DNA of 64,000 bases from NCBI GenBank assembly GCA_027356105.1, contig DAIEGT010000001.1, positions 61,929 through 125,928 of the forward strand, read 5' to 3'. Numbering within the stretch: position 1 is the first letter of the stretch; every line of letters starts with the position of its first letter. Shown here piece after piece: positions 26,142 to 51,550 of the stretch. The translations under genes and the position numbers were made by a program. The DNA is from Candidatus Saccharimonadota bacterium (GTDB lineage: Bacteria > Patescibacteriota > Saccharimonadia > Saccharimonadales > UBA4665). Below the pieces are notes generated by a model. That model made no database searches. It was given only the letters and a program-made list of their open reading frames with translations, and was not told the origin of the DNA.

Positions 26142-27455
26142 ATGAATTTTCGAAAATTAGTTAAAAAGCTTATACCCAGGAATCTGTTTTGGAAAATTGA
26201 ACCGATTGGTCATTTTTTCGAAGCATTTATTGTTAATTTAATTAATTTTTTTCCAATGCGACAGGTTAAGGTTATCGGCGTAACTGGGACAAACGGCAAA
26301 ACGACCACAACTCTTTTGATTCATAATATGCTAAATAAAGCTGGCTATAAAGTTGGATTCAATTCAACAATTGGCTATGGCTATAAAGATGAATTTATCC
26401 CTCAAATACACCATATGACAAACGTCTCGACTAAGGAAATGATTTCTCGGGTAAAAAAAATGAAAAAACAGGGTATGGAATGGCTAGTTTTAGAAACCAC
26501 TTCTCACGCCTTAGCCCAGTACCGAGTTTGGGGTGTACCTTATTCGATAGCTGTCTTTACGAATTTAACACACGAGCACTTAGCTTATCATCGAACTTTT
26601 GAAAGATATCGTCAGGCTAAAGTTAAATTATTTAAAATGGCCAATCATAACAGACAAGGTCTACGGTTTGGTGTCATAAATTCAGATGATCAAAATAGCC
26701 CATATTTTGAAAAAAATATCAAAAATAACATTAAGTACGGCATGAAAAGTGGTGACTTGAAGCCTAGAAATGTTGATTTAAAACCAACTCAGCTTAGCTA
26801 TGACTCTTCATATGAAAATACAGATTATCACATAGTTTGCCAGATACCGGGCAGCTTTAATGTTTATAATTCATTAGCCGCTCTAGCGGTTGGTATTAAA
26901 TTGAATCTATCTAAAAAACAAATTGAGGATGGCATAAGTTCGTTAAGTTTCGTTGAAGGCCGAATGAATATAATTGATCAGGGCCAGCCCTTTACGGTTA
27001 TTGTCGATTATGCTCATTCTCCTGATAGTTTTGAAAAATTATTTAAAGATATTAAACCAATGGTTAAAAATAAACTGATTGTATTATTTGGATCTTTAGG
27101 CGGAGGGGATCTGGGCAAAAGAGGTATACAGGGTCAATTAGCTGGAAAATATGCCGATTACACCTTTGTCTGTCAGGAAGATGATCGACAAGAAGACGGT
27201 CTGAAGATTATGAATGATATTGCAATTGGGATAAAAAGTGAAGGTAAAAAAGAAAACCAAGATTTCTTTTTGATTCATGATCGACCAGAGGCAATATTAG
27301 CTGCCCTCAAAAAAGCTGAAAAAAATGATATTGTACTTTTCTTAGGCAAGGGGCATGAAAAAACCATGGAAGATAAAGATGGCGAACATCCTTGGAACGA
27401 AACTGAGGTTGTCGAAAAATGTCTAACAGAAATTGGCTACACGAAACACCGTTAG
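26142..27455 (+). CDS. murE: Mur ligase, MurE-like (UDP-MurNAc-L-Ala-D-Glu : diamino acid ligase) with short N-terminus
   Basis: 437 aa with GVTGTNGKTTT, LETTSHAL, FTNLTHEHLAYH, VDYAHSPDSFEKL and GKGHE. The P-loop lies at about residue 46 rather than about 110. Confidence 0.7.
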   Translation: MNFRKLVKKLIPRNLFWKIEPIGHFFEAFIVNLINFFPMRQVKVIGVTGTNGKTTTTLLIHNMLNKAGYKVGFNSTIGYGYKDEFIPQIHHMTNVSTKEMISRVKKMKKQGMEWLVLETTSHALAQYRVWGVPYSIAVFTNLTHEHLAYHRTFERYRQAKVKLFKMANHNRQGLRFGVINSDDQNSPYFEKNIKNNIKYGMKSGDLKPRNVDLKPTQLSYDSSYENTDYHIVCQIPGSFNVYNSLAALAVGIKLNLSKKQIEDGISSLSFVEGRMNIIDQGQPFTVIVDYAHSPDSFEKLFKDIKPMVKNKLIVLFGSLGGGDLGKRGIQGQLAGKYADYTFVCQEDDRQEDGLKIMNDIAIGIKSEGKKENQDFFLIHDRPEAILAALKKAEKNDIVLFLGKGHEKTMEDKDGEHPWNETEVVEKCLTEIGYTKHR

Positions 27456-28420
27456 GCGTTAATCTTATTTCTTTCCATATAACCTGTATACCAACTCAAA
27501 TTCTGACCTAAGAATTTTGCAATTAATTCAATTCCTAAATCAGCTGTCTTATAATTTACATCTTGGAGTGGATTGAATTCAACTACATCTACTCCTATAA
27601 CTCGACATTTCTGACCGATATATTCAGCAATCGTTGCAATTTCCCGATAAGTTAAACCTTTGGCATTTGGCATACCTGCTGCAGGCGCATAAATTTGATC
27701 GATGACATCTAAATCCAAACTAACCCAAACATTACTACTTATTTGGGAAATTTCATCAATCAACTTTAATAAGGGGGCTAAGTTATTACTTAATAGATCA
27801 AAAAGTGTAAAGGTTTTAATATTTAAACGAGAAATTAGATCTAATTCGGCTTGGTCCCAGTCGCTACCACCGATATGAAGTAGGTTATTTGGACTTAATT
27901 TTCGACCTTGACTATAGAGATTACTTAATCTTTCATCACCTAAACCTAGCAGGGAGGCGACATGCATTCCGTGGATATTACCACTTAAAGTAGTATCTTT
28001 AGTATTCATATCACCATGAGCATCCAAATAAATCATCACCAAATCTTGTTTAAGAGCCGCTGATGCACCAGATATTAGACCTAAATTAATCGAATGATCA
28101 CCACCGAGGGCGACAATTTTTTGACCTGATGAAATTATCGTATCAGTTAATTGAGCAACTTCTTGATTTACTCGAATTATTTCATCTGCATACCTTAAGC
28201 GTTCGTCTCCAATTTCAATATCTTTCCGTGGACGAACAATGATATCACCATGATCTTTTATCTCGAGACCAGCTGAAGAGAGTTTTTGAACTATATGTTG
28301 ATATCTAAAGGCCTGTGGACCGATATCAACACCTAAGTTTTCAGCACCTAGATCGAGTGGTATACCAATTAAATTAATCAAATTATCCATTATTAAAAGT
28401 TTATCACAGATATAAAACAA
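27452..28420 (-). CDS. ureohydrolase (arginase/agmatinase/formiminoglutamase family)
   Basis: 322 aa with Mn-binding motifs GGDHSI, DAHGD and SLDLDVID. The start is likely the internal MDNLINLIGIP. Confidence 0.8.
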   Translation of the reverse strand: MFYICDKLLIMDNLINLIGIPLDLGAENLGVDIGPQAFRYQHIVQKLSSAGLEIKDHGDIIVRPRKDIEIGDERLRYADEIIRVNQEVAQLTDTIISSGQKIVALGGDHSINLGLISGASAALKQDLVMIYLDAHGDMNTKDTTLSGNIHGMHVASLLGLGDERLSNLYSQGRKLSPNNLLHIGGSDWDQAELDLISRLNIKTFTLFDLLSNNLAPLLKLIDEISQISSNVWVSLDLDVIDQIYAPAAGMPNAKGLTYREIATIAEYIGQKCRVIGVDVVEFNPLQDVNYKTADLGIELIAKFLGQNLSWYTGYMERNKINA

Positions 28421-37473: not shown

Positions 37474-38027
37474 ATCCCAAACCACTGCAAAACAATATCA
37501 ATCCAATTTTTATTAGTGCCTTTATAAGGTAATTTTTTGCTAAGCAAATCCATAACTTGATTGGCGTCATTTTCGTTTAAATAAAAACTAACTGCTGTGG
37601 AGAATCGTTTAATTGGCAATAGTGAGATAGAGATTATACCATCAACTGATTTATTATCTGAGAACGACTGAAAAATTGAGAAATAGAAAGTCTTATTATC
37701 AACTGTAATATCTCTATTGCTAAAAATTATTTTAATGATTTTAGGTTTTTTAAGACTTAACGTAATAAGAATAATCACACCAATAAAAATCGCTACAATA
37801 GCTATATAGTCTTTTAAGAATATAAATATTAGTGTGTTTACGACAAATGCCACTAATACAATTAAAAGATATCTGGTAAATTTCTTAGCTGGTAAAGTAT
37901 CAAAACCGTTTAATTCAATTCTCTCATTATTATCATTTGGAAGAGTAGGGTTATCGGTAGTGATAATATCATTTTGATCAGACATTTTGTCTGCATTTTC
38001 CGGATGGTAAAAATTATCGTTTTCCAT
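37470..38027 (-). CDS. hypothetical membrane protein
   Basis: 185 aa with two adjacent TM helices followed by a small soluble domain. Confidence 0.4.
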   Translation of the reverse strand: MENDNFYHPENADKMSDQNDIITTDNPTLPNDNNERIELNGFDTLPAKKFTRYLLIVLVAFVVNTLIFIFLKDYIAIVAIFIGVIILITLSLKKPKIIKIIFSNRDITVDNKTFYFSIFQSFSDNKSVDGIISISLLPIKRFSTAVSFYLNENDANQVMDLLSKKLPYKGTNKNWIDIVLQWFGI

Positions 38028-38071
38028 TTAATTTATACTATACTAAATTTTTTTAAAACTATGACAAAATC

Positions 38072-38164
38072 TGGCGGAGAGAGAGGGATTCGAACCCTCG
38101 CGGGGAATTGCTTCCCCCTATCGATTTAGCAAACCGACCCCTTCAGCCACTTGGGTATCTCTCC
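38072..38164 (-). tRNA. tRNA-Ser (anticodon GCU)
   Basis: 93-nt type II tRNA. Acceptor GGAGAGA/UCUCUCC, anticodon stem UCGGU/AUCGA, loop UUGCUAA, long variable arm, T arm GAGGG-UUCGAAU-CCCUC, G73, CCA. Confidence 0.85.
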
Positions 38165-38175
38165 AAAAAATTATC

Positions 38176-38265
38176 TGGCGGAAGAGGTGGGATTTGAACC
38201 CACGGTACCATTTCTGGCACGCTGGTTTTCAAGACCAGTTCCTTAAACCACTCGGACACCCTTCC
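38176..38265 (-). tRNA. tRNA-Ser (anticodon UGA)
   Basis: 90-nt type II tRNA. Acceptor GGAAGGG/CUCUUCC, anticodon stem CUGGU/ACCAG, loop CUUGAAA, T arm GUGGG-UUCAAAU-CCCAC, G73, CCA. Confidence 0.85.
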
Positions 38266-38449
38266 ATAACAGATAATCTTAAAATCTATTATACTACACA
38301 TTCTAGGCATGAAACCCTCATAATTAATGTTGTGTTTATTGTGTTGTAAATAACATAAAACTTTATTGATATATCTTTAAGACTTAAGTTATACTGTTGA
38401 TAAGACAAAAATACAATAATATTTAATATTAAAGTTTTTGGAGGGTATA

Positions 38450-38929
38450 ATGGCGAGACGAAACCGCGATGACGATTTAATGTTAGAGGAAGATGAGTTA
38501 ACTGCTGCCTTCTTGGGTGAAGACGACAATATGACAAATCAACAGGATCAAACTCAAAACATGCCAACTGCAAAAGACTGGGAAGAAGATGAAGACGATA
38601 ATATTCCCGGACAATTAGCTGTTGATGTTTATGAAACAAAGGAAAAACTTGTTGTAAAAGCCAGGACTGCTGGTGTAAACAGGAACGAATTGGATGTCAG
38701 TATTGCTGATAATCAATTAACAATTAAAGGAACCTTGAGTTCTGGTGTAGAAGAAGACGTCGAGAACTACTTCTTGCAAGAATGTTATTGGGGTGAATTC
38801 TCAAGAACTATCGCATTACCAGTACCAGTTAAAGAAGAAGAGATTGAAGCTGTTCTAAAAGATGGCGTTCTAACAATTTCTTTTGGTAAAGTTAAGCAAG
38901 ATACTATAAAGAAGATTCAAGTTCTTTAA
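38450..38929 (+). CDS. Hsp20/alpha-crystallin small heat-shock protein
   Basis: ATG at 38450 follows GGAGGG. It has an alpha-crystallin domain (LAVDVYETKEKLVVKARTAGV...GEFSRTIALPVPVKEEEIEAVLKDGVLTISF). Confidence 0.9.
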   Translation: MARRNRDDDLMLEEDELTAAFLGEDDNMTNQQDQTQNMPTAKDWEEDEDDNIPGQLAVDVYETKEKLVVKARTAGVNRNELDVSIADNQLTIKGTLSSGVEEDVENYFLQECYWGEFSRTIALPVPVKEEEIEAVLKDGVLTISFGKVKQDTIKKIQVL

Positions 38930-38950
38930 ATAGAGTAGGGCTTAATTAAT

Positions 38951-38980
38951 AAAAAACCTCGGGTAGAACCGAGGTTTTTT
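38951..38980. terminator. bidirectional intrinsic terminator between hsp20 and the pilin operon
   Basis: AAAAAA-CCTCGG-gtagaa-CCGAGG-TTTTTT. The GC stem is flanked by an A run and a T run, so it is usable on both strands. Confidence 0.65.
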
Positions 38981-39018
38981 ATTTAAATAAGACTATTTTT
39001 CTTTATAGTATTTAAGTC

Positions 39019-39450
39019 TTAGGCTGCTGTAACAGAAGTACTAGCAGTATTTGCAACAAAACTTACTATAACTTGAGCGGCAATTACTACTACAATACCA
39101 ACTAAAGCATATATTAAAGTATTCTTGGCTGAACTTACCTTATTTGAATCTCCACCAGATGTTACATATTTAAAACCAGCAACAATTAACATTACTACCG
39201 AAATAACTCCAACTATATATGTAAAAGTAGTCACAATTGTGTGTGCGAGTGTTCCAAGGGTGGCTGTAGCACTACTGCTTCCACAAGAACCATTCGCTGT
39301 TCCTGTTGATGATTGTGTTATTCCATTACAAATATTAGTAATAGGGACTGTAGCATAAGCTGAACTGCTAGTAATTGGTAATAAAACTGGTACAAATGTC
39401 ATAAGACTAATTGTTAATACTGTTAAAAACTTTTTGATTTTAAGTGCCAT
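39019..39450 (-). CDS. VirB2/TrbC-like T4SS pilin paralog 1
   Basis: 143 aa with a signal peptide ending AYA, a short Cys-containing ectodomain, and two hydrophobic helices joined by the loop FKYVTSGGDSNKVSSAKNTLIYALVG. Confidence 0.7.
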   Translation of the reverse strand: MALKIKKFLTVLTISLMTFVPVLLPITSSSAYATVPITNICNGITQSSTGTANGSCGSSSATATLGTLAHTIVTTFTYIVGVISVVMLIVAGFKYVTSGGDSNKVSSAKNTLIYALVGIVVVIAAQVIVSFVANTASTSVTAA

Positions 39451-39533
39451 TTTGATCTTCCTTTATTTATAAATTATTAAAATACTTACGGTATTTAGAA
39501 ACAATTATATATTAAATCATTAAAATACAATAA

Positions 39534-39932
39534 TCAACCATTTTTAACCTTACTGAAGACTAACAACATCAGTGTACGAGATATGATGACAAATGCTAAG
39601 CCAATTAGAGCGTATGTTAAAGTTTGTTTCGCTTGAGTAACCTTATTCGAATCTCCGGAACTGGAAGAGTATCTAAACCCACTTACAATCATTAAAATAA
39701 CTGTCAAAATACCCGCTACATAAGAAAAAATATTGAGAATTGAATTTATTATATTGCTAATTGGGTTGCCTGTGTGTGCATTGTTATTTATAGTAGAGCA
39801 GACGTTGGTTGAACTTAAAGAAGAATTTGAAGAACAGGCTTTGAAGACATTTGCTGCAAATGAAGTATTTGTAACCAAAAGAGGTGTGGTTAGTATGATC
39901 ATGGAAATAATTAATACTTTACCTATTTTCAT
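39534..39932 (-). CDS. VirB2/TrbC-like T4SS pilin paralog 2
   Basis: 132 aa with a signal peptide ending SFA and the loop FRYSSSSGDSNKVTQAKQTLTYALIG between two helices. Confidence 0.7.
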   Translation of the reverse strand: MKIGKVLIISMIILTTPLLVTNTSFAANVFKACSSNSSLSSTNVCSTINNNAHTGNPISNIINSILNIFSYVAGILTVILMIVSGFRYSSSSGDSNKVTQAKQTLTYALIGLAFVIISRTLMLLVFSKVKNG

Positions 39933-40258
39933 ACTTTAATATTCCCCATAACAATATCAATAATAGTAGTAGCACTTGCTGTAATTATTCCCCCAACAAT
40001 TGTATAAATGATTGTCTTTCTAGCATTTGCAACCTTCTGAGGATTTCCTTCTGAAGTTATTAACATAATACCGCCAATCACAATCATTAAGACCGTTAAG
40101 CTGCCAATTATATAAAATACCACTCCCAGTACATCGTTTAGTGTAAGGTTTGAAGCTTTAGTAGTTGGTAGACCAGAAATACTACAAATAGCTGAATTAC
40201 CTGAAACACATACGGTTGAAACTCCTAATAAATGTATCATTCTAAATAAATTCATCAT
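39929..40258 (-). CDS. VirB2/TrbC-like T4SS pilin paralog 3
   Basis: 109 aa with the loop MLITSEGNPQKVANARKTIIYTIVG. It shares an ATGA overlap with its neighbours. Confidence 0.65.
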   Translation of the reverse strand: MMNLFRMIHLLGVSTVCVSGNSAICSISGLPTTKASNLTLNDVLGVVFYIIGSLTVLMIVIGGIMLITSEGNPQKVANARKTIIYTIVGGIITASATTIIDIVMGNIKV

Positions 40259-40620
40259 TTAATACTCGATGCTATGAAATTTACTATAATTGAGGCAGAA
40301 AATGCAATTACTAAGCCAATTAAGCCGTTTTGAATTATTTTACGAGCTTTAACAACTGATTCTGAATTACCGGCACTTGTGATATAGGCGATTCCGCCAT
40401 AAATTACATAAAAAAAGGCTAGTATTAAAATAACCCGAAGCAGTATTTCTATAATTGCAGCCACTACCAACCATATATCAGATATTGAACTAATGCTCGG
40501 CGAACAAAGACCATTGGCGCCAACTGTTCCGTTTAAATATTCATACCAGCTTGGAAAACCTAATAAATTACCGTGTTTACAAACTGTTGAGGTTGTAGCT
40601 GCTAAAATCTGAAAATTCAT
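40255..40620 (-). CDS. VirB2/TrbC-like T4SS pilin paralog 4
   Basis: 121 aa with the loop IAYITSAGNSESVVKARKIIQNGLIG. It has ATGA overlaps on both sides. Confidence 0.65.
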   Translation of the reverse strand: MNFQILAATTSTVCKHGNLLGFPSWYEYLNGTVGANGLCSPSISSISDIWLVVAAIIEILLRVILILAFFYVIYGGIAYITSAGNSESVVKARKIIQNGLIGLVIAFSASIIVNFIASSIK

Positions 40621-41192
40621 GCTTTAAAAAATCCTGCTGGAATTAAATAATTTAATATAGCGTATATAAAAATGAAAAATATTAATGCAATGATTGATGA
40701 TCGTATTCTCTTGATTGCATTTGCAACTTTCTGTGAATCACCACCTGCGGTTGTGTATAGAATACCAGCATATATAATTGAGCCAACTATTACCAGCCCG
40801 ACTCCATCAGATAAAAATCTTATTAATGAAAAAAGCAAATCAATAATTGGTGAACTATTTTGGCTACAATAAGCAGCTCCACTAGCTCCGGCTACACATG
40901 CATCACCTTTACAGCCAAAATCTATTGAGGTTGTTTGTTTTTCTGATCCAGTACCACATTGGTAAGTAGTTGGGGTTGAGACTGTTGAAGTAGTAGTAGT
41001 AGTGGTGGTGGTAGTGGTAGTTGAGTTAGGACGTGGAGTTGCAAGAACAGCATAGACCGCATTACTACCAATTAGACTAGACTGACTAATTAGTAAAAAT
41101 AATAGAACAGGCCACGATAGTTTAATGAGTTTCAAATGCAATATTTTGATTCTATTATAATATACGTTTTTTTTTGCTTTTTTATTTCGCAT
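40617..41192 (-). CDS. VirB2/TrbC-like T4SS pilin paralog 5 with poly-Thr linker
   Basis: 191 aa with a long signal/anchor, an 11-Thr run, a Cys-rich segment and the loop ILYTTAGGDSQKVANAIKRIRSSIIA between two helices. Confidence 0.65.
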   Translation of the reverse strand: MRNKKAKKNVYYNRIKILHLKLIKLSWPVLLFLLISQSSLIGSNAVYAVLATPRPNSTTTTTTTTTTTSTVSTPTTYQCGTGSEKQTTSIDFGCKGDACVAGASGAAYCSQNSSPIIDLLFSLIRFLSDGVGLVIVGSIIYAGILYTTAGGDSQKVANAIKRIRSSIIALIFFIFIYAILNYLIPAGFFKA

Positions 41193-41262
41193 ATATCATA
41201 ATTGTACTGAAGTGATAAATTAAATCAAGTTATCGAGATATAGATTTGGTATAAAAATAGAA

Positions 41263-44085
41263 ATGCATACATTTAAAAGAACATACGTCGTTGGGCTTGG
41301 TATCTTATTGATATTAATCGCCTTAGTGCTACCAGTTAGTACTACTCTTGCGGTTACAGCAACTTCAACATCTGGCGGTAACAGTACTTCTTATCAAAAC
41401 AACAATGCAGAGCTTACTTATAATGGGCAAACATTCTATGAGTGTAAGACCACTACTTTGGCCGATTTCTGTAGTTTTAGTTTTTCTGGAAATGATACAT
41501 CTTACGGGGCTCCTAACTTAACATCTTCAAACGTTGCCAATACATCTGCTTCAGGTGCAACACCTTCGAGCGGATCTTTTACCTATTATTTTAATCAATC
41601 AATGATAAATGCAATGTGTCCAGGGACTGCTGCAAATATTAGTGGTTTTCCAGCAACTTGTACAACGGGAACTATTTCGAATTTAAGTTGTAATAGTTTT
41701 TGGAATATATTTAAAAATACAAATTCAGCCTTCATTGTGTCGGGTGCTTCAAGTATAGTTAACTCAAGTGGTTTGATTAATAATACATTCGATCCTAATT
41801 CTGCAATGTATTTTACAGCCTCAAAACCATTCTCTTTCAATGATTTAACTTCTTCACCTCCAATACAAGGTACTACCTGTCTTGGCCCGAACCCAATAAC
41901 TTCATCAAGATCAATTGGTCAACCTCAAGGAAGTGTAATTAGTGTAGCTGCTGGTTCTTATGTAGTGCCATCTACTACCACAACTGGTTCAACTGGTAAC
42001 TCAAACAATAACACCAAGGCGGACTGCACAGCGAGTGGTATAGATCTAAGCTGGATTATATGTCCTGTTATTGATGGGATATCAAACATAATAAGTGGCT
42101 TCTATAACTCGGTACTTGCTCCAATGTTAAATGTTGATAGTAGCCAATTTATTGGATCTTCTAGTTTTTTCTACCAAGCCTGGTCAAATTTTAGAATAAT
42201 TGCTGATATTCTTTTAGTATTAATAATGTTGCTGGTTGTTTTTGGCGAAACAATTGGTGGTGGACTTTTAGATGCCTATACAATTAAAAAAGCTATCCCA
42301 AGATTAGTAGTAATGGTTATTCTAAGTAATCTATCTGTCTATATTGTTGTTGCTTTAATCGATGTATTTAATATTCTTGGAAAAGGAATTGAAGCTCTTC
42401 TAGTTGCGCCTTTCCCGAATCTCAATATTTCAACAAAAGATTTTTCTGGAGTCACTTCACTTACGCTTTTATTTGGCGGTATTTGGGCTGGGGCAGCTGC
42501 TTTTGGTGGAATCGCTTTCTTTTTACTGTTTTTACTTATTCCAGGTATTCTAGCGTTAGTTGCTACTTTTATAACTTTAGGCCTAAGACAAATTATAATT
42601 ATGTTTCTTCTAATTGCTTCACCGATTGCATTCATTCTATATATAATGCCAAATACGGAAAAATATTTTAAAAAGTGGTGGGGATTACTTATTAAAACCT
42701 TAATGGTATACCCAATAGTTTTTGCAATCTATGCTTTGTCTCAAATTGCTATAGTAGGGCTATTTAAAATAAACACCAGCTCAGGCACACTAAACGTTAT
42801 CGATAGTTTGCTGGCTATTTTCGCCATGTTATTACCAATATTCTTAATTCCCTTTGCATTTAAAATGTCTGGTGGATTAGTTGGTGGTGCGTATGGTTTA
42901 TTGAATAAAGCTATGAAAGGTGAGCCATATAAGCGTTTTATAGCAGGGCAAAGGAAAAAATCATTCGGCAAACAGTTTGGCAAAATGCAAAGCAATAATA
43001 GGTATAACACAGACACGAGGTTTGATAAATTAAATACAGCTAACCGATTCAGAAATAGTTTATTACAAAATGCCACACTACTACCCGAAGCCCTACAAGG
43101 TAAAAAATCACCTAGCGCTATTAAGAATAATCTAGCCGCTGCTAGAGGATTAAGAAATAATCAAATCGGTATGGAGGCCTTAAAAAACCAGAGTCCAGCA
43201 CTCCAATCTATAGGAGGAGACCCTGATGCTGTTAACGCAGGTGTAGCGCATGGCACTAATGAAGATCTTATTGCTACTTTCTTAGCTGATATCGTTGGGA
43301 AAAGGAAGGGTTCTGCGCTTACAGACCAGGAGTTACGTGATATTAAATTAAAGGCTAGGAACGTTGCTCAAGCTGTTAGGGGTATAGGTCACGGGGCATT
43401 TAAAGAAATCGCACCAACTCTGAAGGCCCAATCTTCTGGGGCATATTCAAAAAGTCCAACTTCAAACGGAATTGCAACTATGCTTAGTGAAGTTATTGCT
43501 GCATCTGATGGTAATATAGAGTTGGCGAGACAAGGAGCTATAAGAGCCACCAAAACTGCGGGAGAGGCCGGTAGGAGCGACTTAGCACTGAGCGCTGGTG
43601 ATACATTGACTGCTTTAGATGAGGTACAAAAAGTATATGATACTTATGGGACGTTTAATAGTGTTGAAGCAGTCGCAAGGCTTAGTGAAATAAATAACAA
43701 ATACTACGAAAGAATTATCCAAACCAAAGGTGCATCTGCTTTGGTTGGAGCAAAATCTTCAGCCATCGACAATATTGCACCTACAATGGTTAAAGGACTC
43801 GATAGTTATACTACGAGTGGGCCAAACTCCGATGATTTCTTCAAACGACTGGCTGCTATTGCCAATACTTACGATACGCTTAGTAGTATTAGTCCGGAAA
43901 GCGCAGCCAAATTTTCTGATCAAGTATTGTCCAGTAGAGATTTCGGTGACGGCTCTGCTACAGTAATAGAACTGCTTGAAAAACATAGAACTGATCCAAG
44001 ATTCTTAAACTTCAGAAGAGAAGGTATGATGCAATCTCCAGGTACACAGACACCAGGATCTCCGCCTACGACACCTACTGTTTAA
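41263..44085 (+). CDS. VirB6/TrbL-like polytopic T4SS channel protein with large N- and C-terminal extensions
   Basis: 940 aa. It has a signal/anchor, a ~300 aa Cys/Ser/Thr/Asn-rich ectodomain, and at least six TM helices at about residues 310-560 (e.g. GIAFFLLFLLIPGILALVATFITLGL, IIMFLLIASPIAFILYIM, LLAIFAMLLPIFLIPFAF). A ~370 aa soluble tail follows. It sits beside the VirB3/VirB4 genes. Confidence 0.6.
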   Translation: MHTFKRTYVVGLGILLILIALVLPVSTTLAVTATSTSGGNSTSYQNNNAELTYNGQTFYECKTTTLADFCSFSFSGNDTSYGAPNLTSSNVANTSASGATPSSGSFTYYFNQSMINAMCPGTAANISGFPATCTTGTISNLSCNSFWNIFKNTNSAFIVSGASSIVNSSGLINNTFDPNSAMYFTASKPFSFNDLTSSPPIQGTTCLGPNPITSSRSIGQPQGSVISVAAGSYVVPSTTTTGSTGNSNNNTKADCTASGIDLSWIICPVIDGISNIISGFYNSVLAPMLNVDSSQFIGSSSFFYQAWSNFRIIADILLVLIMLLVVFGETIGGGLLDAYTIKKAIPRLVVMVILSNLSVYIVVALIDVFNILGKGIEALLVAPFPNLNISTKDFSGVTSLTLLFGGIWAGAAAFGGIAFFLLFLLIPGILALVATFITLGLRQIIIMFLLIASPIAFILYIMPNTEKYFKKWWGLLIKTLMVYPIVFAIYALSQIAIVGLFKINTSSGTLNVIDSLLAIFAMLLPIFLIPFAFKMSGGLVGGAYGLLNKAMKGEPYKRFIAGQRKKSFGKQFGKMQSNNRYNTDTRFDKLNTANRFRNSLLQNATLLPEALQGKKSPSAIKNNLAAARGLRNNQIGMEALKNQSPALQSIGGDPDAVNAGVAHGTNEDLIATFLADIVGKRKGSALTDQELRDIKLKARNVAQAVRGIGHGAFKEIAPTLKAQSSGAYSKSPTSNGIATMLSEVIAASDGNIELARQGAIRATKTAGEAGRSDLALSAGDTLTALDEVQKVYDTYGTFNSVEAVARLSEINNKYYERIIQTKGASALVGAKSSAIDNIAPTMVKGLDSYTTSGPNSDDFFKRLAAIANTYDTLSSISPESAAKFSDQVLSSRDFGDGSATVIELLEKHRTDPRFLNFRREGMMQSPGTQTPGSPPTTPTV

Positions 44086-44177: not shown

Positions 44178-45086
44178 ATGTCAACATACAAAGTTATTCA
44201 GGATATAGAAGCAGAAGATCATATAATTGGTCCATTCTCGCTTAGGCAGTTCGTTTACCTTCTAATATCACTCTTCTTTGGTTATATTTCCGTCATAATT
44301 ATGCTAAAAGGAGCTGTTTATTTTGATATATTGTTTATACCTTTCGTATTATTTTTTGGTTTTTTGGCATTTCCGTTTATTAAAGATCAACCAACAGAAG
44401 TTTGGGCATTAGCAAAAATTAGATTCTTGGCTAAACCTCGAAAAAGACTTTGGAATCAGACAGGTATAAAAAACAATGTTACTATAACTGTTCCAAAGAA
44501 GATAAACAAACAACTTACCAAAAATCTAGATAATAATGAAGTTAAAAATCGACTGAAAAGATTATCTGAAACTATCGATTCAAGAGGATGGGTCATTAAA
44601 AATATTGATGGGCCAATCCTGCAGTTTGATAAAGACGATCAGGATGCCGATCGATTAATTATGCCGACTAAAGAAGTTCCAGACGAAACTGATTTAGACA
44701 ACAAATTCGATATTCTAGACTCAGATGCAAATCCAACGGCAAGTAAAATTGATTCTATGATAACTGAAACTGAATATAATCATCGTCAAAGATTAATAAA
44801 CCTTGTTAATTCAGCACCTCAAACACCTCAATTACCTAAAGCGCATAAAGCAATAACAAGTCCTGTTGAACTTCCGATAAAGTTGAAGAAAACTGAAACT
44901 ACTCAAGAAATCCAAGCACCCACAGTACCAGCAAAACCCGTTACTGAGATAACGAAAGAAACAAATAATTCAGTTAAAAATGCTATAATAAATTTTTCAG
45001 GTAACGACAATTTAAGTCTCCAGACAATGTCCAAAGAGATAAATAAAAAAACGTTAGAGCAAGAAGTTGTTATATCATTAAGATAG
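44178..45086 (+). CDS. PrgI/VirB3-like T4SS membrane protein
   Basis: 302 aa. The N-terminus YKVIQDIEAEDHIIGPFSLRQFVYLLISLFFGYISVII plus a second TM matches the PrgI-family pattern. It lies upstream of virB4. Confidence 0.6.
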   Translation: MSTYKVIQDIEAEDHIIGPFSLRQFVYLLISLFFGYISVIIMLKGAVYFDILFIPFVLFFGFLAFPFIKDQPTEVWALAKIRFLAKPRKRLWNQTGIKNNVTITVPKKINKQLTKNLDNNEVKNRLKRLSETIDSRGWVIKNIDGPILQFDKDDQDADRLIMPTKEVPDETDLDNKFDILDSDANPTASKIDSMITETEYNHRQRLINLVNSAPQTPQLPKAHKAITSPVELPIKLKKTETTQEIQAPTVPAKPVTEITKETNNSVKNAIINFSGNDNLSLQTMSKEINKKTLEQEVVISLR

Positions 45087-45105: not shown

Positions 45106-45927
45106 ATGAATCCAAATAATTTTCAGAGCAATCAACCAAACCCGAGTATTGTTGGTCAAAACAACTTAAGTAATACACCCACCCAAAACAGTATTAACCC
45201 AAATAGCACTCAAAATATACTAGAAATTGCTGAGATTAGAGACGGTATAGTTATTATGAACGATGGTTCTTTTAGATCTGTTATCATGGTAAAAAGTATC
45301 AACTTTGACTTAATGAGCCAAGAAGAGCAGGAAGCAATTGAATTCAGCTACCAAGGATTTTTAAACTCATTGTATTTCCCAATCCAAATCTTTATACATT
45401 CCCAAAAAATTGATTTAAAACCCTACATTGATCGATTAGATAAAATTAGAACAGAGCAAGATAATATGCTTCTAGCTCTTTTAATGGCCGATTATCTAGA
45501 TTTTATTGAAGCTGTCAGCCAAAAAGCCAATATTATGGACAAACTATTTTATATAATAATCCCTTACTACCCAAATAATGAAGAACAGAAAACTGTTTAT
45601 GGTAGCAAAAGCTTTTTATTTGGTTTAGCAGATCTTTTCTCGAAAAACCCATCTAAGCACGTAATTATTAATGAAGCTGATTTGGAAAAAGCTAAGACTG
45701 AACTGCGAAACAGAGTACAATCAGTACTATCTGGTTTAGCTCAAACAAATTTACAAAGCCTACCTCTTGATACCCAAGAGTTAATTGAGTTATATTATGA
45801 TGTCTATAATCCTGACACCTCAACTAGACAACAACTAACAAATATTGATAATTTGACTGAAGATTTTATAGTAAAAGGCGACGGCGTAGCCCCTCAACCA
45901 CACCTTGATAATGGATTAAAGGGTTAA
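45106..45927 (+). CDS. T4SS-associated hypothetical protein (VirB4 N-terminal-domain-like pattern)
   Basis: 273 aa with a Q/N-rich N-terminus, then ILEIAEIRDGIVIMNDGSFRSVIMVKSINFDLMSQEEQEAIEFSYQGFLNSLYFPIQIF. This resembles the start of monoderm VirB4/PrgJ-type proteins. It has no P-loop. Confidence 0.4.
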   Translation: MNPNNFQSNQPNPSIVGQNNLSNTPTQNSINPNSTQNILEIAEIRDGIVIMNDGSFRSVIMVKSINFDLMSQEEQEAIEFSYQGFLNSLYFPIQIFIHSQKIDLKPYIDRLDKIRTEQDNMLLALLMADYLDFIEAVSQKANIMDKLFYIIIPYYPNNEEQKTVYGSKSFLFGLADLFSKNPSKHVIINEADLEKAKTELRNRVQSVLSGLAQTNLQSLPLDTQELIELYYDVYNPDTSTRQQLTNIDNLTEDFIVKGDGVAPQPHLDNGLKG

Positions 45928-45937
45928 CTTAGGATTA

Positions 45938-47770
45938 ATGATGTTTAACAAGAAAAACCAAGTAAGTCCCGTAAATTTAGCCAAGGAACAAGAGCTACGT
46001 GAACAAAAGGAAGTTCAAGCAGCTTTCCAAAAAGGTATTACAGCTTTAAGAGATTTTATTGCCCCAAGTTCGATTGAATTTTCTTCAAGTTATTTTCAAA
46101 TAGGTACTAGATTTGCTAGAACTTTTTATGTTTATGGTTATCCTAGACAACTCTATACGGGCTGGCTCAGTGGTTTAGTTAATATTGATGAAGTTATGGA
46201 TATGGCCTTGTATGTCTACCCAGTAAACAGCCAAGTAGTACTTGAAAATCTAAGGAAAAAAGTTAGTCAATTAGAAGCCGGTATTCAAATTGATAACGAA
46301 AAAGGTAAGGTCCGAGATCCTTCAAAAGAAGCAGCTATAACTGATGCCGAAGAGATTAGAGATAAGTTGCAGGTGGGCGAAGAAAGATTTTTCCGTTTTG
46401 GACTTTACTTTACAATATTCGGTAACTCAAAAGAAGATTTAGACTTCATTTCAAATAAAGTCGAATCAATGTTAGGTCAACAATTAATTTATTCAAAACC
46501 AGCATCATCTCAACAGGAACAAGGATTTAACAGTACCATCCCTCAAATGACCGATCACTTACAGGTTAGAAGAAACCTTAGTACTGGTGCATTAAGTACA
46601 AGTTTTCCTTTCACTAGTGCTGATTTAACCCAGGAAAATGGCATTCTGTATGGGGTAAACATGCATAACTCGGGACTTGTTATATTTGATAGATTCTCAC
46701 TCGAAAATAGTAACTCGGTTGTTTTTGCTAAATCTGGTGCCGGTAAATCTTTTACTGTTAAGCTAGAAGCTCTGAGAAGCTTGATGTTTGGCACAGAAAT
46801 AATGATCATTGATCCAGAAAACGAATACCAGAAAATGTGTGAAGCAGTTGGTGGGGCATACATAAGACTAAGCTTAAATTCGAACACTAGATTAAATCCG
46901 TTTGACCTTCCAAAAGTCGTCGACACTGAAGAAGCCGATAATGCGCTACGCAGTAACTTAATAACTCTTCATGGATTATTCAGGTTAATGATGGGTGGAG
47001 CGCAGAATCAAATGATGGGTGGTGAATCTGTCTTAGCTCCAGCCCTAAATCCAATTGAAGAATCTGATTTAGACACTGCGCTAATTGCAACTTATGAAAA
47101 GGCTGGTATTACAAACGATCCTTTTACGCATAATTCACCACCTCCAACAACTCTTGATTTATATGACACCTTACTTCACATGGGTGGCACTGGTCCTCAG
47201 TTAGCACAAAGATTAAGAAAATATACTACAGGGACTTTTGCTGGTATTTTCTCGCAACTTTCCAATATTGAAATAAATAACCCTCTTGTTGTTTTTAATA
47301 TTCGAGATTTAGAGGATGAATTAAGACCTGTTGCTATGTATATAATCTTAAACTTTATCTGGAATAAAACTAAAAGCGACCAGAAAAAAAGAATTCTCAT
47401 AGTAGATGAGGCTTGGCAGCTAATGAAGTACGAGGATTCGGCTAACTTCTTGTTCTCGCTAGCAAAAAGAGCAAGAAAATATAATCTAGGTATTACGACT
47501 ATTTCGCAGGATGTTGAAGATTTCATCGGTTCAAGGCTAGGTAGGGCAATCGTAGCTAATGCTAGTATGCAAATACTCCTTAAACAGTCCCCTACAGCAG
47601 TTGATTTATTGTCTGATGTCTTTAAACTAACTGCGGAAGAGAAAAAAAGGTTAAGTCAATTTCCAATCGGCCAAGGTTTATTTTTTGCTGGTCAAAACCA
47701 TGTTCACATTCAAATAATTGCCTCTCCACAAGAAAATCAGTTAATCAATACTAACCCAGTAAACAAATAA
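45938..47770 (+). CDS. virB4: VirB4-family T4SS ATPase
   Basis: 610 aa with Walker A (AKSGAGKSFTVK), Walker B (RILIVDEAWQL) and an N-terminal FARTFYVYGYPRQLYTGWLSGL pattern typical of VirB4/TraE/PrgJ. Confidence 0.85.
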   Translation: MMFNKKNQVSPVNLAKEQELREQKEVQAAFQKGITALRDFIAPSSIEFSSSYFQIGTRFARTFYVYGYPRQLYTGWLSGLVNIDEVMDMALYVYPVNSQVVLENLRKKVSQLEAGIQIDNEKGKVRDPSKEAAITDAEEIRDKLQVGEERFFRFGLYFTIFGNSKEDLDFISNKVESMLGQQLIYSKPASSQQEQGFNSTIPQMTDHLQVRRNLSTGALSTSFPFTSADLTQENGILYGVNMHNSGLVIFDRFSLENSNSVVFAKSGAGKSFTVKLEALRSLMFGTEIMIIDPENEYQKMCEAVGGAYIRLSLNSNTRLNPFDLPKVVDTEEADNALRSNLITLHGLFRLMMGGAQNQMMGGESVLAPALNPIEESDLDTALIATYEKAGITNDPFTHNSPPPTTLDLYDTLLHMGGTGPQLAQRLRKYTTGTFAGIFSQLSNIEINNPLVVFNIRDLEDELRPVAMYIILNFIWNKTKSDQKKRILIVDEAWQLMKYEDSANFLFSLAKRARKYNLGITTISQDVEDFIGSRLGRAIVANASMQILLKQSPTAVDLLSDVFKLTAEEKKRLSQFPIGQGLFFAGQNHVHIQIIASPQENQLINTNPVNK

Positions 47771-47852: not shown

Positions 47853-50183
47853 ATGCAACAGCAACTACTGAAATTTCTAGTTAAAAATAAAAAAATTAGT
47901 ATAACATCGATTATAATAATTGCACTTGGTGGAACAATATTTTTCTCAGGCGCATTTTTACCTGCTTTAGAATTACAAAATCTAGAGAAATTGATGCTAA
48001 AGTATACAACTAAAATTGAAGCACATATGGAACAAACCGCTTCTAGAAAAGTTTTTAAACTTTTAGCATGTAAGGGTTTTGGTGGAGGAGTAGGTGGCGC
48101 AGCTTTTGGTTGTAATAAATCAAATCCTGAAGAAGAGATGACCAAAGCTCAAAACATAACTGAAGCAGATGCGGCTGCTGCAGCTGGTGAAGAGATGACA
48201 TCTGAAATCGATAAATTTAACTTTAATGATCCACAAATTACCAAAACTTTATCCAATCAAGGAATCAAGGTAAACAGTGATGCGACCGGACAATTAACTG
48301 GTTTTAAGGACACCTCGAATGGTAGCTCGCTTACAGAAAATGACTTTAGTAATAATTCAAGTATTTCTACCGAATTAAACACCGCCTTACCTGAAAGCAG
48401 CGTAAATCTAATAGACAATGTTGAACCAATGTTAAATAGTGAGGATGGGGTTGATTTTGCAGGAATTGATGCTCCGCCGACCGATACTCAATCACAAGTT
48501 GATAATCTTATTGAATCTGACGTACAAAGTGGTGTTATTGAACAAACAGCAACTGCTGCAACAACTGATAAAAACCCAACCCCAACAGATCAAAATAATG
48601 CAAGTGCCAATAATACTGTCGAAAACGCCGTTCAAGCTACCCAGGATGCTCTAAATTCAGGCGCTACTGAAACTCAGGCTTTAAGTGCTGGAGTATCTAA
48701 AATGAGTCTGGGTAATTCATTACTAGCAAGTAGTATAGCAACATCTGTATGTAGTATTTATAATGCTGCTGCACATGGTTCGGGTCAAAGAATTGTAACT
48801 ATAACCAATTTATTAATGAGACATTCTGGATTAATATTTAGCTTGGCTGATCAAATGAAAGTAGGTAGTCCTACACCTACGGCTGTGGGTTCTTTTATGA
48901 ACATTCTTCATGCTAAAAATAGTTCGGGTCAAACTTACGAATCTTCAGTTTCTTATAGAAAAATGTCGGGTTTACCTGTATATAGGAATAGTCCGGATAT
49001 TTCACCCTCCAGCCTTCCTATAGCTAGTAGTGGTACATTATTAGTTAATGAAACTACAAAAATCATGAACACTATGGGTGGAACTTTTACATGTAAGATT
49101 TTAAACAGCCCGTTTGGCGGATTATTCCAAGGTGCGCTCGGAATTGTACAATTAGTTACCGATATTGGTAGCTTTGGTGCTAGTCAAGTTGCTATAACGG
49201 CAGGTCTTTTGGCTGGGAATTACGAAATCCAGCATACCTTAATTCCAGATATTCTAAAATATTTCACAGTAGTAGGATTAAGTGGAATTGAGAACGGACC
49301 ATCTTGGGTTAATAATGCTTTTCTGGGAAGTGTTATAACAAGTAATAGAATCGCTCAAAGTTTAGGTGGTCAACCAATGTCAACTACAGCTGCTAACTCA
49401 GCGGCTGCTGTTGTGGGTTACGATCAAGCTAAACAAGAGTCTAGTTTACCACTTACAACTAGATTATTTTCAATCGATAATCCTTCTTCTCTGATATCAA
49501 GGGTAATCCCATATATTCCTACTAGTATATCTGGACTTTTTTCGGATATATCTAATTATTTTACCGACTTCTTTAGTACCTTATTTAAAAATACTGCTGA
49601 TTTATTAATGCCTTCAAAAATTTTTGCTGCAACAAATTATCAAAGTCCAGGCGCATCTTACGGTGTAACAACTTATGGTTTATCAGATTCACAGGCAACA
49701 AAATATCCAATCATCCAAAACGAAAACTATCTCTACGGATCAGATAATCTAACTCTTCCAGACGGAAGTGTGTTGTCTTTAAAAAGAATTACTTTAACCG
49801 GCAATCCTTATAGTTACCCAAATGGTGCAGCTGATAATTCTGCGACTGATTTATACCACTGTTTCAGTCAAAGCTTTGCTTCTCAAAGTAGCTCGAGTTC
49901 AACTATCCCGCTTAATTTTAGTAGTGGCAACAATGATCCAATTTGCGGTTCAATGGGTAGTTTAGATTCTGCGAATGACCCACCACACCCGATTGGAGAA
50001 AATGAAGTTTTATATGCTTACTGTCACACATTTGCAGCTACATTTGTTAGTGATACTCTGACTGAAGATGAGTGTGTGAAACAATTAACTCCTCAATACA
50101 GTGACGATATAGGCCATTTTTCACAGTACATACTAGACAGTGCTGTAGTTCATAATTATTATTCAATGATGAGTACCCAATGA
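47853..50183 (+). CDS. large membrane-anchored orphan protein of the T4SS-like operon
   Basis: 776 aa with an N-terminal TM (ISITSIIIIALGGTIFFSGAFL), an acidic/low-complexity linker and a ~500 aa domain with no recognisable motif. Its stop overlaps the next start (ATGA). Confidence 0.5.
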   Translation: MQQQLLKFLVKNKKISITSIIIIALGGTIFFSGAFLPALELQNLEKLMLKYTTKIEAHMEQTASRKVFKLLACKGFGGGVGGAAFGCNKSNPEEEMTKAQNITEADAAAAAGEEMTSEIDKFNFNDPQITKTLSNQGIKVNSDATGQLTGFKDTSNGSSLTENDFSNNSSISTELNTALPESSVNLIDNVEPMLNSEDGVDFAGIDAPPTDTQSQVDNLIESDVQSGVIEQTATAATTDKNPTPTDQNNASANNTVENAVQATQDALNSGATETQALSAGVSKMSLGNSLLASSIATSVCSIYNAAAHGSGQRIVTITNLLMRHSGLIFSLADQMKVGSPTPTAVGSFMNILHAKNSSGQTYESSVSYRKMSGLPVYRNSPDISPSSLPIASSGTLLVNETTKIMNTMGGTFTCKILNSPFGGLFQGALGIVQLVTDIGSFGASQVAITAGLLAGNYEIQHTLIPDILKYFTVVGLSGIENGPSWVNNAFLGSVITSNRIAQSLGGQPMSTTAANSAAAVVGYDQAKQESSLPLTTRLFSIDNPSSLISRVIPYIPTSISGLFSDISNYFTDFFSTLFKNTADLLMPSKIFAATNYQSPGASYGVTTYGLSDSQATKYPIIQNENYLYGSDNLTLPDGSVLSLKRITLTGNPYSYPNGAADNSATDLYHCFSQSFASQSSSSSTIPLNFSSGNNDPICGSMGSLDSANDPPHPIGENEVLYAYCHTFAATFVSDTLTEDECVKQLTPQYSDDIGHFSQYILDSAVVHNYYSMMSTQ

Positions 50184-51550
50184 AATCAATACTATCGATT
50201 ATCTTTTCATTCATAATTTTAGCAGTTTTTAGTGTAACTAATATTTATGCTCTAACTCCTGCTAAGTGGTATTCAATAAACACAGATTCGGTTTACTACA
50301 CCGGTCAAAGTACTACCTGTTCTACCCCAGTTATGTCGTTACTTTCCCAAAATCCTAATTCATTAAATAGTACCTGGTCAAGTACTGCTTCACCTCCTTA
50401 TTCAATCGAAAATTTCGTTATAAATGTCTTGCAAGATGTAGCAACCAAACTAAACTTACCTTCATCTGATACGGTTACACAGCAACATGTTTTAGCTTTA
50501 GTTGCTTGGGCATATTTAGAGGGTGGAAATATACATAATACTTTTTGGTTTAATCCTTGGAATACTTCTTATAGCCAACCCAACTTACTAGCAGCCGTTC
50601 AAAGTCCAGGTGGATTCCCAACCTACGCAAGTTTTAATGCTGGAGTTGAGGCAGCGGCAATTTCAATGACGGGTTCATATCAAACAAGAATTGGTACGGT
50701 TTTAGCTAATCCATCCTCAAACGCGACCGATGTATTAAACGCAGTCGCATATCCTTTACCTAATTATCCAAGCAATCTCGGCTGGGATACTTCCAGCCCG
50801 CCAGCTGTATATGGTTCAAAGCTATTGCAAGTACTGTCTCAAGCAGAAAACTCTTACAGCCAATATGCTAGCATTGTTATTGGACCAGGTCAGCAAGACA
50901 CTAATCATGTCTCAACATCAAGCTTAGCTTATAATTATGGCTCCCTCGGTTCGACTCAAACTGTTACTAACCCAACTCCAAACGCTTTAGTTACTTCAAA
51001 TCCTTGTTCAACCGCAATTAATTGCCAAACCAATTCTTCTGGAGCTAGTTCGGTTAATTCGGCTATACTCTGTGAAGCTCAAAGATATAACGGAATATAT
51101 TACTCATGGGGTGGCGGTCATGGTAGTTACGCAACATTCAGACAGAATTGTCCTGAAACAGCTATTTCTAGCGCTGCAGCTTCATCAACCTCAGCTAATC
51201 CTGGTCCGTGTGGAACAGACTGTAGTGGTTTAGTAACAGTAGCTATTGATGCGGCGTTTAATCAAAATTATTCTATGTCGGTTAGTGATACGACAGGATT
51301 GATGGTAGGAGACGGCGCGCAATACTGGCAACCAATTTCTCTAAACCAAGTACAGCCAGGAGATATAGCTACCTGGCACGGCGTATTAAACGGCACGGCT
51401 GATGGACACGTAGAAATAGTTGATCATTATGACTCTGCTTCTAATACACTCTACACTTTTGGTTCACATTCAACCGGCAGTAAAACTAGTGAGATAAACT
51501 CAACCAATTACTTTATGGCCTATTATAGGTGGACAGGACCAACCAGCTAA
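50180..51550 (+). CDS. secreted cell-wall hydrolase with C-terminal NlpC/P60 domain (VirB1-like role)
   Basis: 456 aa with a signal peptide. The C-terminal part has GPCGTDCSGLVTVAID (catalytic Cys context DCSG) and GDIATWHG...DGHVEIV (His). The ~280 aa N-terminal domain is unassigned. Confidence 0.7.
   Translation: MKSILSIIFSFIILAVFSVTNIYALTPAKWYSINTDSVYYTGQSTTCSTPVMSLLSQNPNSLNSTWSSTASPPYSIENFVINVLQDVATKLNLPSSDTVTQQHVLALVAWAYLEGGNIHNTFWFNPWNTSYSQPNLLAAVQSPGGFPTYASFNAGVEAAAISMTGSYQTRIGTVLANPSSNATDVLNAVAYPLPNYPSNLGWDTSSPPAVYGSKLLQVLSQAENSYSQYASIVIGPGQQDTNHVSTSSLAYNYGSLGSTQTVTNPTPNALVTSNPCSTAINCQTNSSGASSVNSAILCEAQRYNGIYYSWGGGHGSYATFRQNCPETAISSAAASSTSANPGPCGTDCSGLVTVAIDAAFNQNYSMSVSDTTGLMVGDGAQYWQPISLNQVQPGDIATWHGVLNGTADGHVEIVDHYDSASNTLYTFGSHSTGSKTSEINSTNYFMAYYRWTGPTS

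Follow-up and report, generated by a model that had tools for sequence, protein, structure and literature searches.

Patescibacteria, Saccharibacteria among them, live attached to host bacteria, and the locus described here raises the question of what such an organism does with several pilin genes set side by side. We analysed a 64,000-nucleotide (nt) stretch of contig DAIEGT010000001.1 (assembly GCA_027356105.1), hereafter the window, from a Candidatus Saccharimonadota bacterium of the order Saccharimonadales; its G+C content is about 33%. Five head-to-tail open reading frames (ORFs) span positions 39019-41192 of the minus strand, where an earlier reading of the DNA, which we call the original prediction, had placed them. 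They are almost certainly the pilin array of a chromosomal, origin-proximal, monoderm-type type IV secretion system (T4SS). It is likewise close to certain, judging by synteny and a shared Pfam family, that the array is orthologous to SEML1_0014-0019 of Candidatus Southlakia epibionticum ML1, six PF18895 genes that were each scored essential by transposon sequencing (Tn-seq; Wang et al. 2023, Cell; PMC10633639). The pattern found across related genomes favours a putative abundant major pilin with coupled, specialised minor pilins over a set of interchangeable antigenic variants.

Five members of a secretion pilin family

All five proteins match the Pfam family PF18895 (T4SS_pilin), with E values from 1.9e-13 to 7e-06. 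Four lie above its gathering score of 26.6 bits; the 121-amino-acid (aa) protein, at 26.5 bits (E = 7e-06), lies 0.1 bit under it and reaches 131.9 bits against a hidden Markov model (HMM) of its positional orthologues, themselves PF18895-like. The TrbC/VirB2 family PF04956 is matched above its gathering score of 27.9 bits by the 143-aa protein (30.3 bits); the remaining four stay below it, two with scores of 22.0 and 19.5 bits and two without any match. About 60% of the database homologues of the 143-aa protein bear both PF18895 and PF04956, and one of them is titled 'pilin [Candidatus Saccharimonadales bacterium]' by NCBI. The NCBIfam model NF045849 ('pilin-like conjugal transfer protein', from integrative and conjugative elements of Mycoplasma) gives scores of 35.7 and 26 bits, under its cut-off of 40. 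These matches place the predicted proteins in the T4SS pilin family. With PF18895 in all five, PF04956 in one, and genes for PrgI (VirB3-like) and VirB4 close by, they bear out the original prediction of five tandem VirB2-like pilin paralogues.

What the proteins share is a C-terminal helix-loop-helix, which can be aligned across all five at 23-37% pairwise identity with four invariant residues (G92, G100, V105 and A108 of the 143-aa protein). Such an alignment had been proposed as a check; together with hydropathy it gives two hydrophobic helices and a short polar loop in each protein. The loop motif put forward at the same time holds in essence, but M never occurs at its first position, which is F or I, and the 191-aa protein departs from it with TA in place of T/S-S and A-I in place of A-K/R. 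The common architecture that was claimed likewise stands for the hairpin and only in part for the signal peptide: the leader is canonical in three proteins, weak in the 109-aa protein and absent from the 121-aa protein. The number of cysteines per ectodomain is even in all five (2, 2, 2, 2 and 4).

For the 143-aa pilin, AlphaFold2 with a 55-sequence alignment returned a leader helix, a poorly defined ectodomain and two helices (residues 61-97 and 102-142), with a predicted local distance difference test (pLDDT) score of about 76-83 in the hairpin and 68.8 overall. Foldseek found no PDB match to this model at E <= 0.001; the best, at E = 0.7, was to an unrelated chain and the top matches were unrelated helical proteins, a two-helix hairpin being poorly discriminating. 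A profile search of PDB sequences with the same alignment gave chance-level matches only, among them the membrane proteins MacB and cytochrome bd, and tblastn of the 143-aa pilin against 72,556 plasmids gave no match. A holin or other phage family was rejected by a PHROGs scan, which matched none of the five proteins. Membership of an unrelated family such as the holins had been named beforehand as the outcome that would overturn the pilin assignment, and the HMM searches led to PF18895 instead.

Gene order and coupling

Read along the minus strand, the genes encode proteins of 191 aa (40617-41192; PF18895 38.4 bits), 121 aa (40255-40620), 109 aa (39929-40258; 48.6 bits), 132 aa (39534-39932; 41.7 bits) and 143 aa (39019-39450; 50.7 bits), in agreement with the length spread of 109 to 191 aa noted before. 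Stop and start codons of the first four genes overlap as ATGA at 40617-40620, 40255-40258 and 39929-39932, and all three of the 4-nt overlaps that had been described can be read in the sequence. The last gene is set apart from the other four by an 83-nt gap (39451-39533), and because of this gap translational coupling extends to four of the five genes. Stoichiometric co-expression, proposed for the whole array, therefore applies to these four and not to the last gene, which is preceded by a promoter-like region and a strong ribosome-binding site of its own. When all window ORFs of at least 50 aa were searched with an HMM, just five pilins were found, and the closest relative recovered also has five; we thus conclude that this sub-lineage has five pilin genes and that none was missed.

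Position-fixed classes across related genomes

The array is conserved in about 40 related genomes. In the related loci, an HMM of the five hairpins detected 276 pilin ORFs, always upstream of the T4SS core and divergent from it. Excluding arrays cut by contig ends, there are 27 arrays of six genes, three of seven, two of nine, and one each of five and four. The comparison of copy number suggested with the original prediction thus gives six as the usual number, with a range of 4-9. The closest relative (L081), whose major pilin is 72% identical, has the same five-gene layout, followed by Hsp20, with pilins of 163, 137, 109, 130 and 144 aa.

Classes were defined from 33 six-gene arrays of species-level genomes. 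Within these arrays, the best match of a pilin in another genome lies at the same position in 1044, 1048, 885 and 1007 of 1056 cases for positions 1, 2, 3 and 6, respectively; positions 4 and 5 resemble position 6. Against the position-specific HMMs, the first window gene scores 146.7 bits as class 1 (next best at most 37.5), the second 131.9 bits as class 2 (at most 53.2) and the third 85.7 bits as class 3 (61.2), which are wide margins. The fourth is nearest to class 4 (105.9 bits, with 96.8 for class 5 and 85.8 for position 6) and the fifth to class 6 (131.7 bits, with 127.9 for class 5). By these scores the predicted classes of the window are 1, 2, 3, 4 and 6, and just the class-5 duplicate is absent.

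Junctions follow position as well, with medians of -1, -1 and -4 nt for the first three and 9 nt for the fourth. Mean hairpin identity among orthologues is 62% in class 6 and 39-49% in the other classes, and the N-terminal parts are merely 20-34% identical; exactly two cysteines are present in 165 of the 276 pilins. The comparison shows the predicted pilin classes to be ancient, fixed in position and older than speciation.

Some related loci depart from the six-gene form. Nine pilins are present in L049 and L071, and seven in L055, L061 and L064, with the extra copies mostly around or after the gap that precedes the major pilin of six-gene arrays; this suggests recent duplication of the class 4-6 type. 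Three loci (L025, L033 and L070) have a complete 10-kb upstream flank yet no pilin match, and their arrays may be located elsewhere.

Separate signals around the last gene

The gap at 39451-39533 is a candidate internal promoter of the last pilin gene, as it carries a TATAAT -10-like hexamer and the ribosome-binding site AAAGGAAG. The junction at this point has a median length of 74 nt in the six-gene arrays. Among 39 gaps before the last gene, an extended -10 element (TGnTATAA) occurs in 27, against a shuffle mean of 0.8, and A[AT]GAAAGG also in 27, against a shuffle mean of 0.3. The corresponding gap of L081 reads TTGATT-17-TAATAT, then AAAGGAAA. An Rfam scan of 38000-41400 returned nothing in the 83-nt gap, only two tRNA-Ser genes and sub-threshold terminator-like matches at about 38945-39013.

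Between the last pilin gene and a convergent Hsp20 gene lies a hairpin (38948-38983) flanked by A and T runs. Its folding energy is -19.6 kcal/mol (z = -6.2), and none of 200 shuffled sequences was as stable; it is probably a bidirectional terminator. A generic promoter and terminator scanner missed both elements, the promoter with its 15-nt spacer and the hairpin with a stem lengthened by the A/T runs. The case for the promoter is therefore built on cross-genome comparison and that for the terminator on folding. At the other end of the array, the 70-nt divergent control region between the first pilin gene and the VirB6-like gene (41193-41262) contains a minus-strand promoter-like TTGATT-16-TACAAT at 41228-41201, a consensus match only.

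Features of the individual pilins

Each class has features of its own. The class 1 pilin has a long basic leader, a poly-Thr tract, an ectodomain with four cysteines (residues 79, 94, 99 and 109) and a hairpin ending in LIPAG. Across relatives the class 1 ectodomain is long, Cys-rich and of low complexity, the C-terminus reads LIPGG, and position-1 pilins span 129-297 aa. An imperfect ACY trinucleotide run (40950-41024, minus strand) encodes STTTTTTTTTTTSTVSTPTT between the class 1 leader and the Cys-rich ectodomain; this tract could be an O-glycosylated spacer, or could vary in length through slippage.

The class 2 pilin of the window has neither a basic N-terminus nor a hydrophobic core (maximum 9-residue Kyte-Doolittle value 1.47), and its ectodomain carries the motif C..LLGFPSWYEYL..C, conserved in orthologues as C…FfGlPxWYkYL…C, where a signal peptide is usually missing too. 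The class 3 pilin, the shortest, has a weak leader and a conserved G/S-LP motif ahead of helix 1; it is the shortest class with an LP motif in orthologues as well. Neither the class 2 nor the class 3 ORF can be extended upstream, and the orthologues are mostly alike in the N-terminus. Most class 2 and class 3 pilins (loci L002-L080) begin with a short uncharged stretch of the approximate form M..L..FAA and have no Sec signal peptide, and a minority of class 2 orthologues (for example in L067, L031, L019, L078 and L058) have a full signal peptide before the same ectodomain motif. These N-termini suggest another route of membrane insertion or an unusual short leader.

By hydropathy, the class 4 pilin has a clear signal peptide (…TSFA/AN) and a two-cysteine ectodomain. 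The class 6 pilin likewise combines a signal peptide (…SSAYA/T) with a two-cysteine ectodomain, and its hairpin is the most conserved of all.

The secretion operon and its surroundings

The array diverges from a T4SS operon on the plus strand. Its first gene (41263-44085) encodes a 940-aa protein that is, by topology and synteny, a candidate extended VirB6-like channel subunit. Its hydropathy profile starts with a signal or anchor segment and an exported domain of about 270 aa rich in Ser, Thr and Cys; about 6-7 transmembrane helices follow within residues 306-541, and a hydrophilic tail of about 400 aa completes the protein. The gene occupies the position of SEML1_0013/0011, which structure-based annotation assigned to VirB6/T4SS (PMC10633639, Table S2). 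PrgI, which is VirB3-like, follows at 44178-45086 (PF12666, 34.7 bits; gathering score 27), and then a 273-aa TrsD-like protein that is similar to the N-terminal domain of VirB4 (45106-45927). Matches of the latter are weak and below cut-off (NF041427 TrsD, 30 bits; N-terminal part of conju_CD1110, 29 bits; Pfam TraC_F_IV, E = 0.004), and its orthologue in L081 bears PF26593 TraC-like.

The VirB4-type ATPase (45938-47770, 610 aa) is of the monoderm CD1110 type, with 358 bits to NF045971 (cut-off 325) and 98.9 bits to Pfam P-loop_TraG. It is 80-84% identical to its orthologues in the best 80 genomes, nearly all of which are labelled Saccharibacteria, Saccharimonadales or Patescibacteria. VirB4 function is split between two genes, the TrsD-like one and, 10 nt on, that for the ATPase, whose alignment covers positions 177-733 of the CD1110-type model; the same split is found in L081 and in Southlakia (SEML1_0009/0008). 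Next comes a 776-aa exported or anchored protein (47853-50183) with a single N-terminal hydrophobic segment, which by synteny takes the place of SEML1_0007; neither it nor the 940-aa protein matches a Pfam or NCBIfam family. The last is a candidate cell-wall hydrolase with a VirB1/PrgK-like role (50180-51550; NlpC/P60, 19.7 bits, under the gathering score of 23). In Southlakia, the syntenic SEML1_0006 has lysozyme and cysteine-proteinase domains (PMC10633639).

The VirB4 and PrgI genes both lie at most 7 kb from the array, and this linkage recurs in about 40 genomes. RecF, dnaN, dnaA, rnpA and yidC follow within about 15 kb, which puts the T4SS beside the replication origin. Pfam searches of all window ORFs of at least 180 aa and some smaller ones found no VirD4-type ATPase and recognised no VirB5, and the linked pair of VirD4-type coupling protein and relaxase that marks a conjugative T4SS was not found. 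A 289-aa PF13814 Replic_Relax protein (62230-63099, plus strand; 50 bits, gathering score 25.3) is encoded just past the origin cluster (dnaN, dnaA, rnpA, yidC, jag), about 10 kb from the T4SS.

Directly downstream of the array are the Hsp20 gene (38438-38929, plus strand) and two tRNA-Ser genes with anticodons GCT and TGA (38072-38265, minus strand). Hsp20 is convergent on the last pilin gene also in L081 and in Southlakia (SEML1_0020). Farther away, an arginase-family protein is encoded at 27452-28420 on the minus strand (PF00491, 189 bits). Arginine catabolism, through the arginine deiminase system, is a host-association trait of Saccharibacteria noted in the papers cited here.

A probable major pilin with specialised minor pilins

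How, then, might five pilins be used? With some reserve, we hold it probable that they are position-fixed, specialised subunits, the last gene encoding the major pilin and the upstream genes minor ones. Five VirB2-type helical-hairpin pilins would be inserted in the cytoplasmic membrane, three with cleavable Sec leaders and two with short atypical N-termini, and their variable, disulfide-bridged N-terminal ectodomains would face outward as the exposed surface. Belonging to five of six ancient, position-fixed classes, they would not be interchangeable. The last gene (39019-39450), which combines a promoter-like region of its own with a strong ribosome-binding site, a probable terminator and a hairpin conserved more than that of any other class, is the probable source of the abundant major subunit. 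From the four overlapping genes upstream probably come minor pilins in low, fixed ratio, whose task may be to prime, tip or anchor a fibre or conduit, filling the role that VirB5 has in Gram-negative bacteria. VirB4, with the TrsD-like, VirB3-like and VirB6-like proteins encoded across the divergent promoter, would drive polymerisation, and the product would be used for contact with the host bacterium, or for exchange with it, not for conjugation. A major pilin with tip or minor subunits was one of several options in the original prediction, and it is the one that the comparative data favour.

A more specific form of this explanation is put forward tentatively, as a possibility in which we have less confidence. 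In it, fixed, non-interchangeable classes would build a heteromeric structure consisting of an abundant major pilin under its own internal promoter and three or four coupled minor pilins, whose disulfide-looped ectodomains would differ by class and two of which would be made without a classical signal peptide. The minor pilins would themselves be the priming or tip complex that replaces VirB5 and would contact the host bacterium. If true, a minor-pilin system would thereby be described for a T4SS pilus for the first time, and in a monoderm.

Several points weigh against an explanation by major and minor pilins. A Patescibacterial T4SS pilus has never been observed and figures in the literature as a possibility only (PMC12857230). 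Neither fold nor sequence gives a significant match to VirB2 or TraA among solved structures, where a two-helix hairpin discriminates little. The split into major and minor subunits, as we infer it, draws on promoter and ribosome-binding-site motifs and on conservation; the window gap itself has no TG extension, its -35-like hexamer stands at a 15-nt spacer, and the promoter scanner made no call there. Classes 4, 5 and 6 are mutually close, and it is in their part of the array that the number of copies changes; some recent class 4-6 duplication appears to occur, and redundancy is thus possible. In addition, polar effects could account for part of the Tn-seq essentiality of the upstream genes in Southlakia.

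Alternatively, the paralogues could be interchangeable variants of one pilin that diversify the exposed surface, for host range or for evasion of phages or host defences. This has been proposed for the virB2 paralogues of Bartonella and Anaplasma and suggested for Patescibacteria in the survey by Quiñonero-Coronel et al. (2025, Microb Genom; PMC12102498). Low within-array identity (23-37%) would fit, as would ectodomains that are 20-34% identical among orthologues against more than 80% for VirB4, a copy number of 4-9 with the extras in the class 4-6 part, and the class 1 ACY run, with its poly-Thr product, which could vary in length. Counter to this, positional orthology over 33 species-level genomes makes the classes older than speciation and their order fixed, each class has its own conserved motifs, and overlapping stop and start codons imply joint rather than alternative expression. 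Individual essentiality of the six Southlakia genes would also be unexpected under redundancy. We consider interchangeable variants unlikely.

Slightly less likely again is a system with no extracellular pilus, in which the PF18895 proteins would stay in the membrane or wall as part of the channel or as a short wall stalk, the several classes together making up a hetero-oligomeric ring or conduit. Pili are generally lacking from monoderm T4SSs of this class (PMC10633639; PMC12102498), two of the classes here have no cleavable leader, and the weak NF045849 matches indicate that small hairpin proteins of this sort may also be found in monoderm systems with no pilus. Set against this are the relationship of the family to the fibre-forming TrbC/VirB2 pilins and the variable, disulfide-looped ectodomains, which suggest exposure to the environment. 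A last subunit that is highly conserved and, by prediction, separately promoted and strongly translated also suits a polymer better than a ring of fixed ratio.

Finally, an unrelated two-helix membrane or secreted family, holin-like or of Sec-secreted 'effectors' as early TM7x work labelled such genes (bioRxiv 10.1101/2022.03.25.485537), is very improbable: the PDB fold and sequence searches were non-committal, but PF18895 is matched by all five proteins and the TrbC/VirB2 gathering score is passed by one, PHROGs gave no match, and in about 40 genomes the pilin genes stay linked to those for VirB4, VirB3 and the VirB6-like protein.

Comparison with known systems

The array is a further member of a published feature and no new kind, since 441 such arrays have been surveyed and the essential array of Southlakia has been published. 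Relatives by family are the TrbC/VirB2 pilins (PF04956) of Gram-negative bacteria, such as VirB2 of Agrobacterium and TrbC of RP4. Like these, the window pilins are small, with a leader, two hydrophobic helices and a short polar loop, and are encoded with VirB3, VirB4 and VirB6 homologues. They differ in belonging to a monoderm system without an outer-membrane complex, in forming five or six classes instead of one, and in having longer ectodomains with a cysteine pair. For a major subunit with minor ones, the parallel lies in type IV pili and the pseudopili of type II secretion, in which low-abundance, co-transcribed minor pilins accompany a major subunit that is separately and highly expressed; the minor subunits have been proposed to prime assembly and form the tip. 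This is a functional analogy only, as the fold and machinery are unrelated and there is no sequence relationship.

The virB2 genes of Bartonella and Anaplasma phagocytophilum resemble the window array as divergent tandem genes beside a T4SS in a host-associated organism. They are viewed as antigenic or host-range variants (as cited in PMC12102498), whereas the window classes are fixed in position and coupled, and each is scored essential in Southlakia.

Multiple pilins, implied to be novel by the original prediction, are already on record, both as arrays of 2-11 genes that are a hallmark of T4SSs in Patescibacteria (PMC12102498) and as the essential six-gene array of Southlakia (PMC10633639; PMC12857230). 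Quiñonero-Coronel et al. counted 441 VirB2 arrays, each of 2-11 genes, across 383 assemblies of Patescibacteria, commonest in Saccharimonadia and Microgenomatia, with a mean within-array identity of 25% and systems often near dnaA (PMC12102498). The window array, with five tandem genes near virB4 and a within-array identity of 23-37%, matches the same PF18895 and PF04956 models and differs in nothing essential; it is a typical member. That survey found a relaxase missing from most Patescibacterial T4SSs, stressed variability and suggested that arrays serve adaptation to different hosts. The terms 'ortholog' and 'minor pilin' are absent from it, and positional orthology and the candidate internal promoter are what the present analysis adds. 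A 2025 review repeats the pilin-array account and calls a pilus an intriguing possibility (PMC12857230).

The closest parallel is the Southlakia locus, from the same phylum. There too a VirB6-like gene diverges from tandem PF18895 pilins near dnaA/recF with a tRNA-Ser close by, and the order is the same: RecF, small exported proteins, hydrolase, large protein, VirB4, TrsD, PrgI, VirB6-like, pilins and convergent Hsp20. The pilin junctions of Southlakia (26, -4, 5, 20 and 83 nt) are similar in style to the early ones of the window, one being a 4-nt overlap, and end with the same 83-nt spacing ahead of the last gene, annotated 'pilin'; Hsp20 (SEML1_0020) was scored essential and tRNA-Ser is SEML1_0022 (PMC10633639). 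The differences are six pilins against five in the window, which lacks a class-5 duplicate of the major pilin, and two VirB6-like genes with a small gene (SEML1_0011-0013) against one large gene. According to the literature, the Southlakia array and T4SS are essential for epibiotic growth, with neither coupling protein nor relaxase required, and the Saccharibacterial system was the first T4SS shown to be essential for growth of its own carrier bacterium (PMC10633639; PMC12857230). What the analysis contributes is the comparative pattern of fixed classes, overlapping early genes, a conserved candidate internal promoter with a strong ribosome-binding site before the most conserved last gene, and class-specific ectodomain motifs, which provides a concrete model of major and minor pilins, testable in cultured, genetically tractable relatives such as Southlakia or TM7x.

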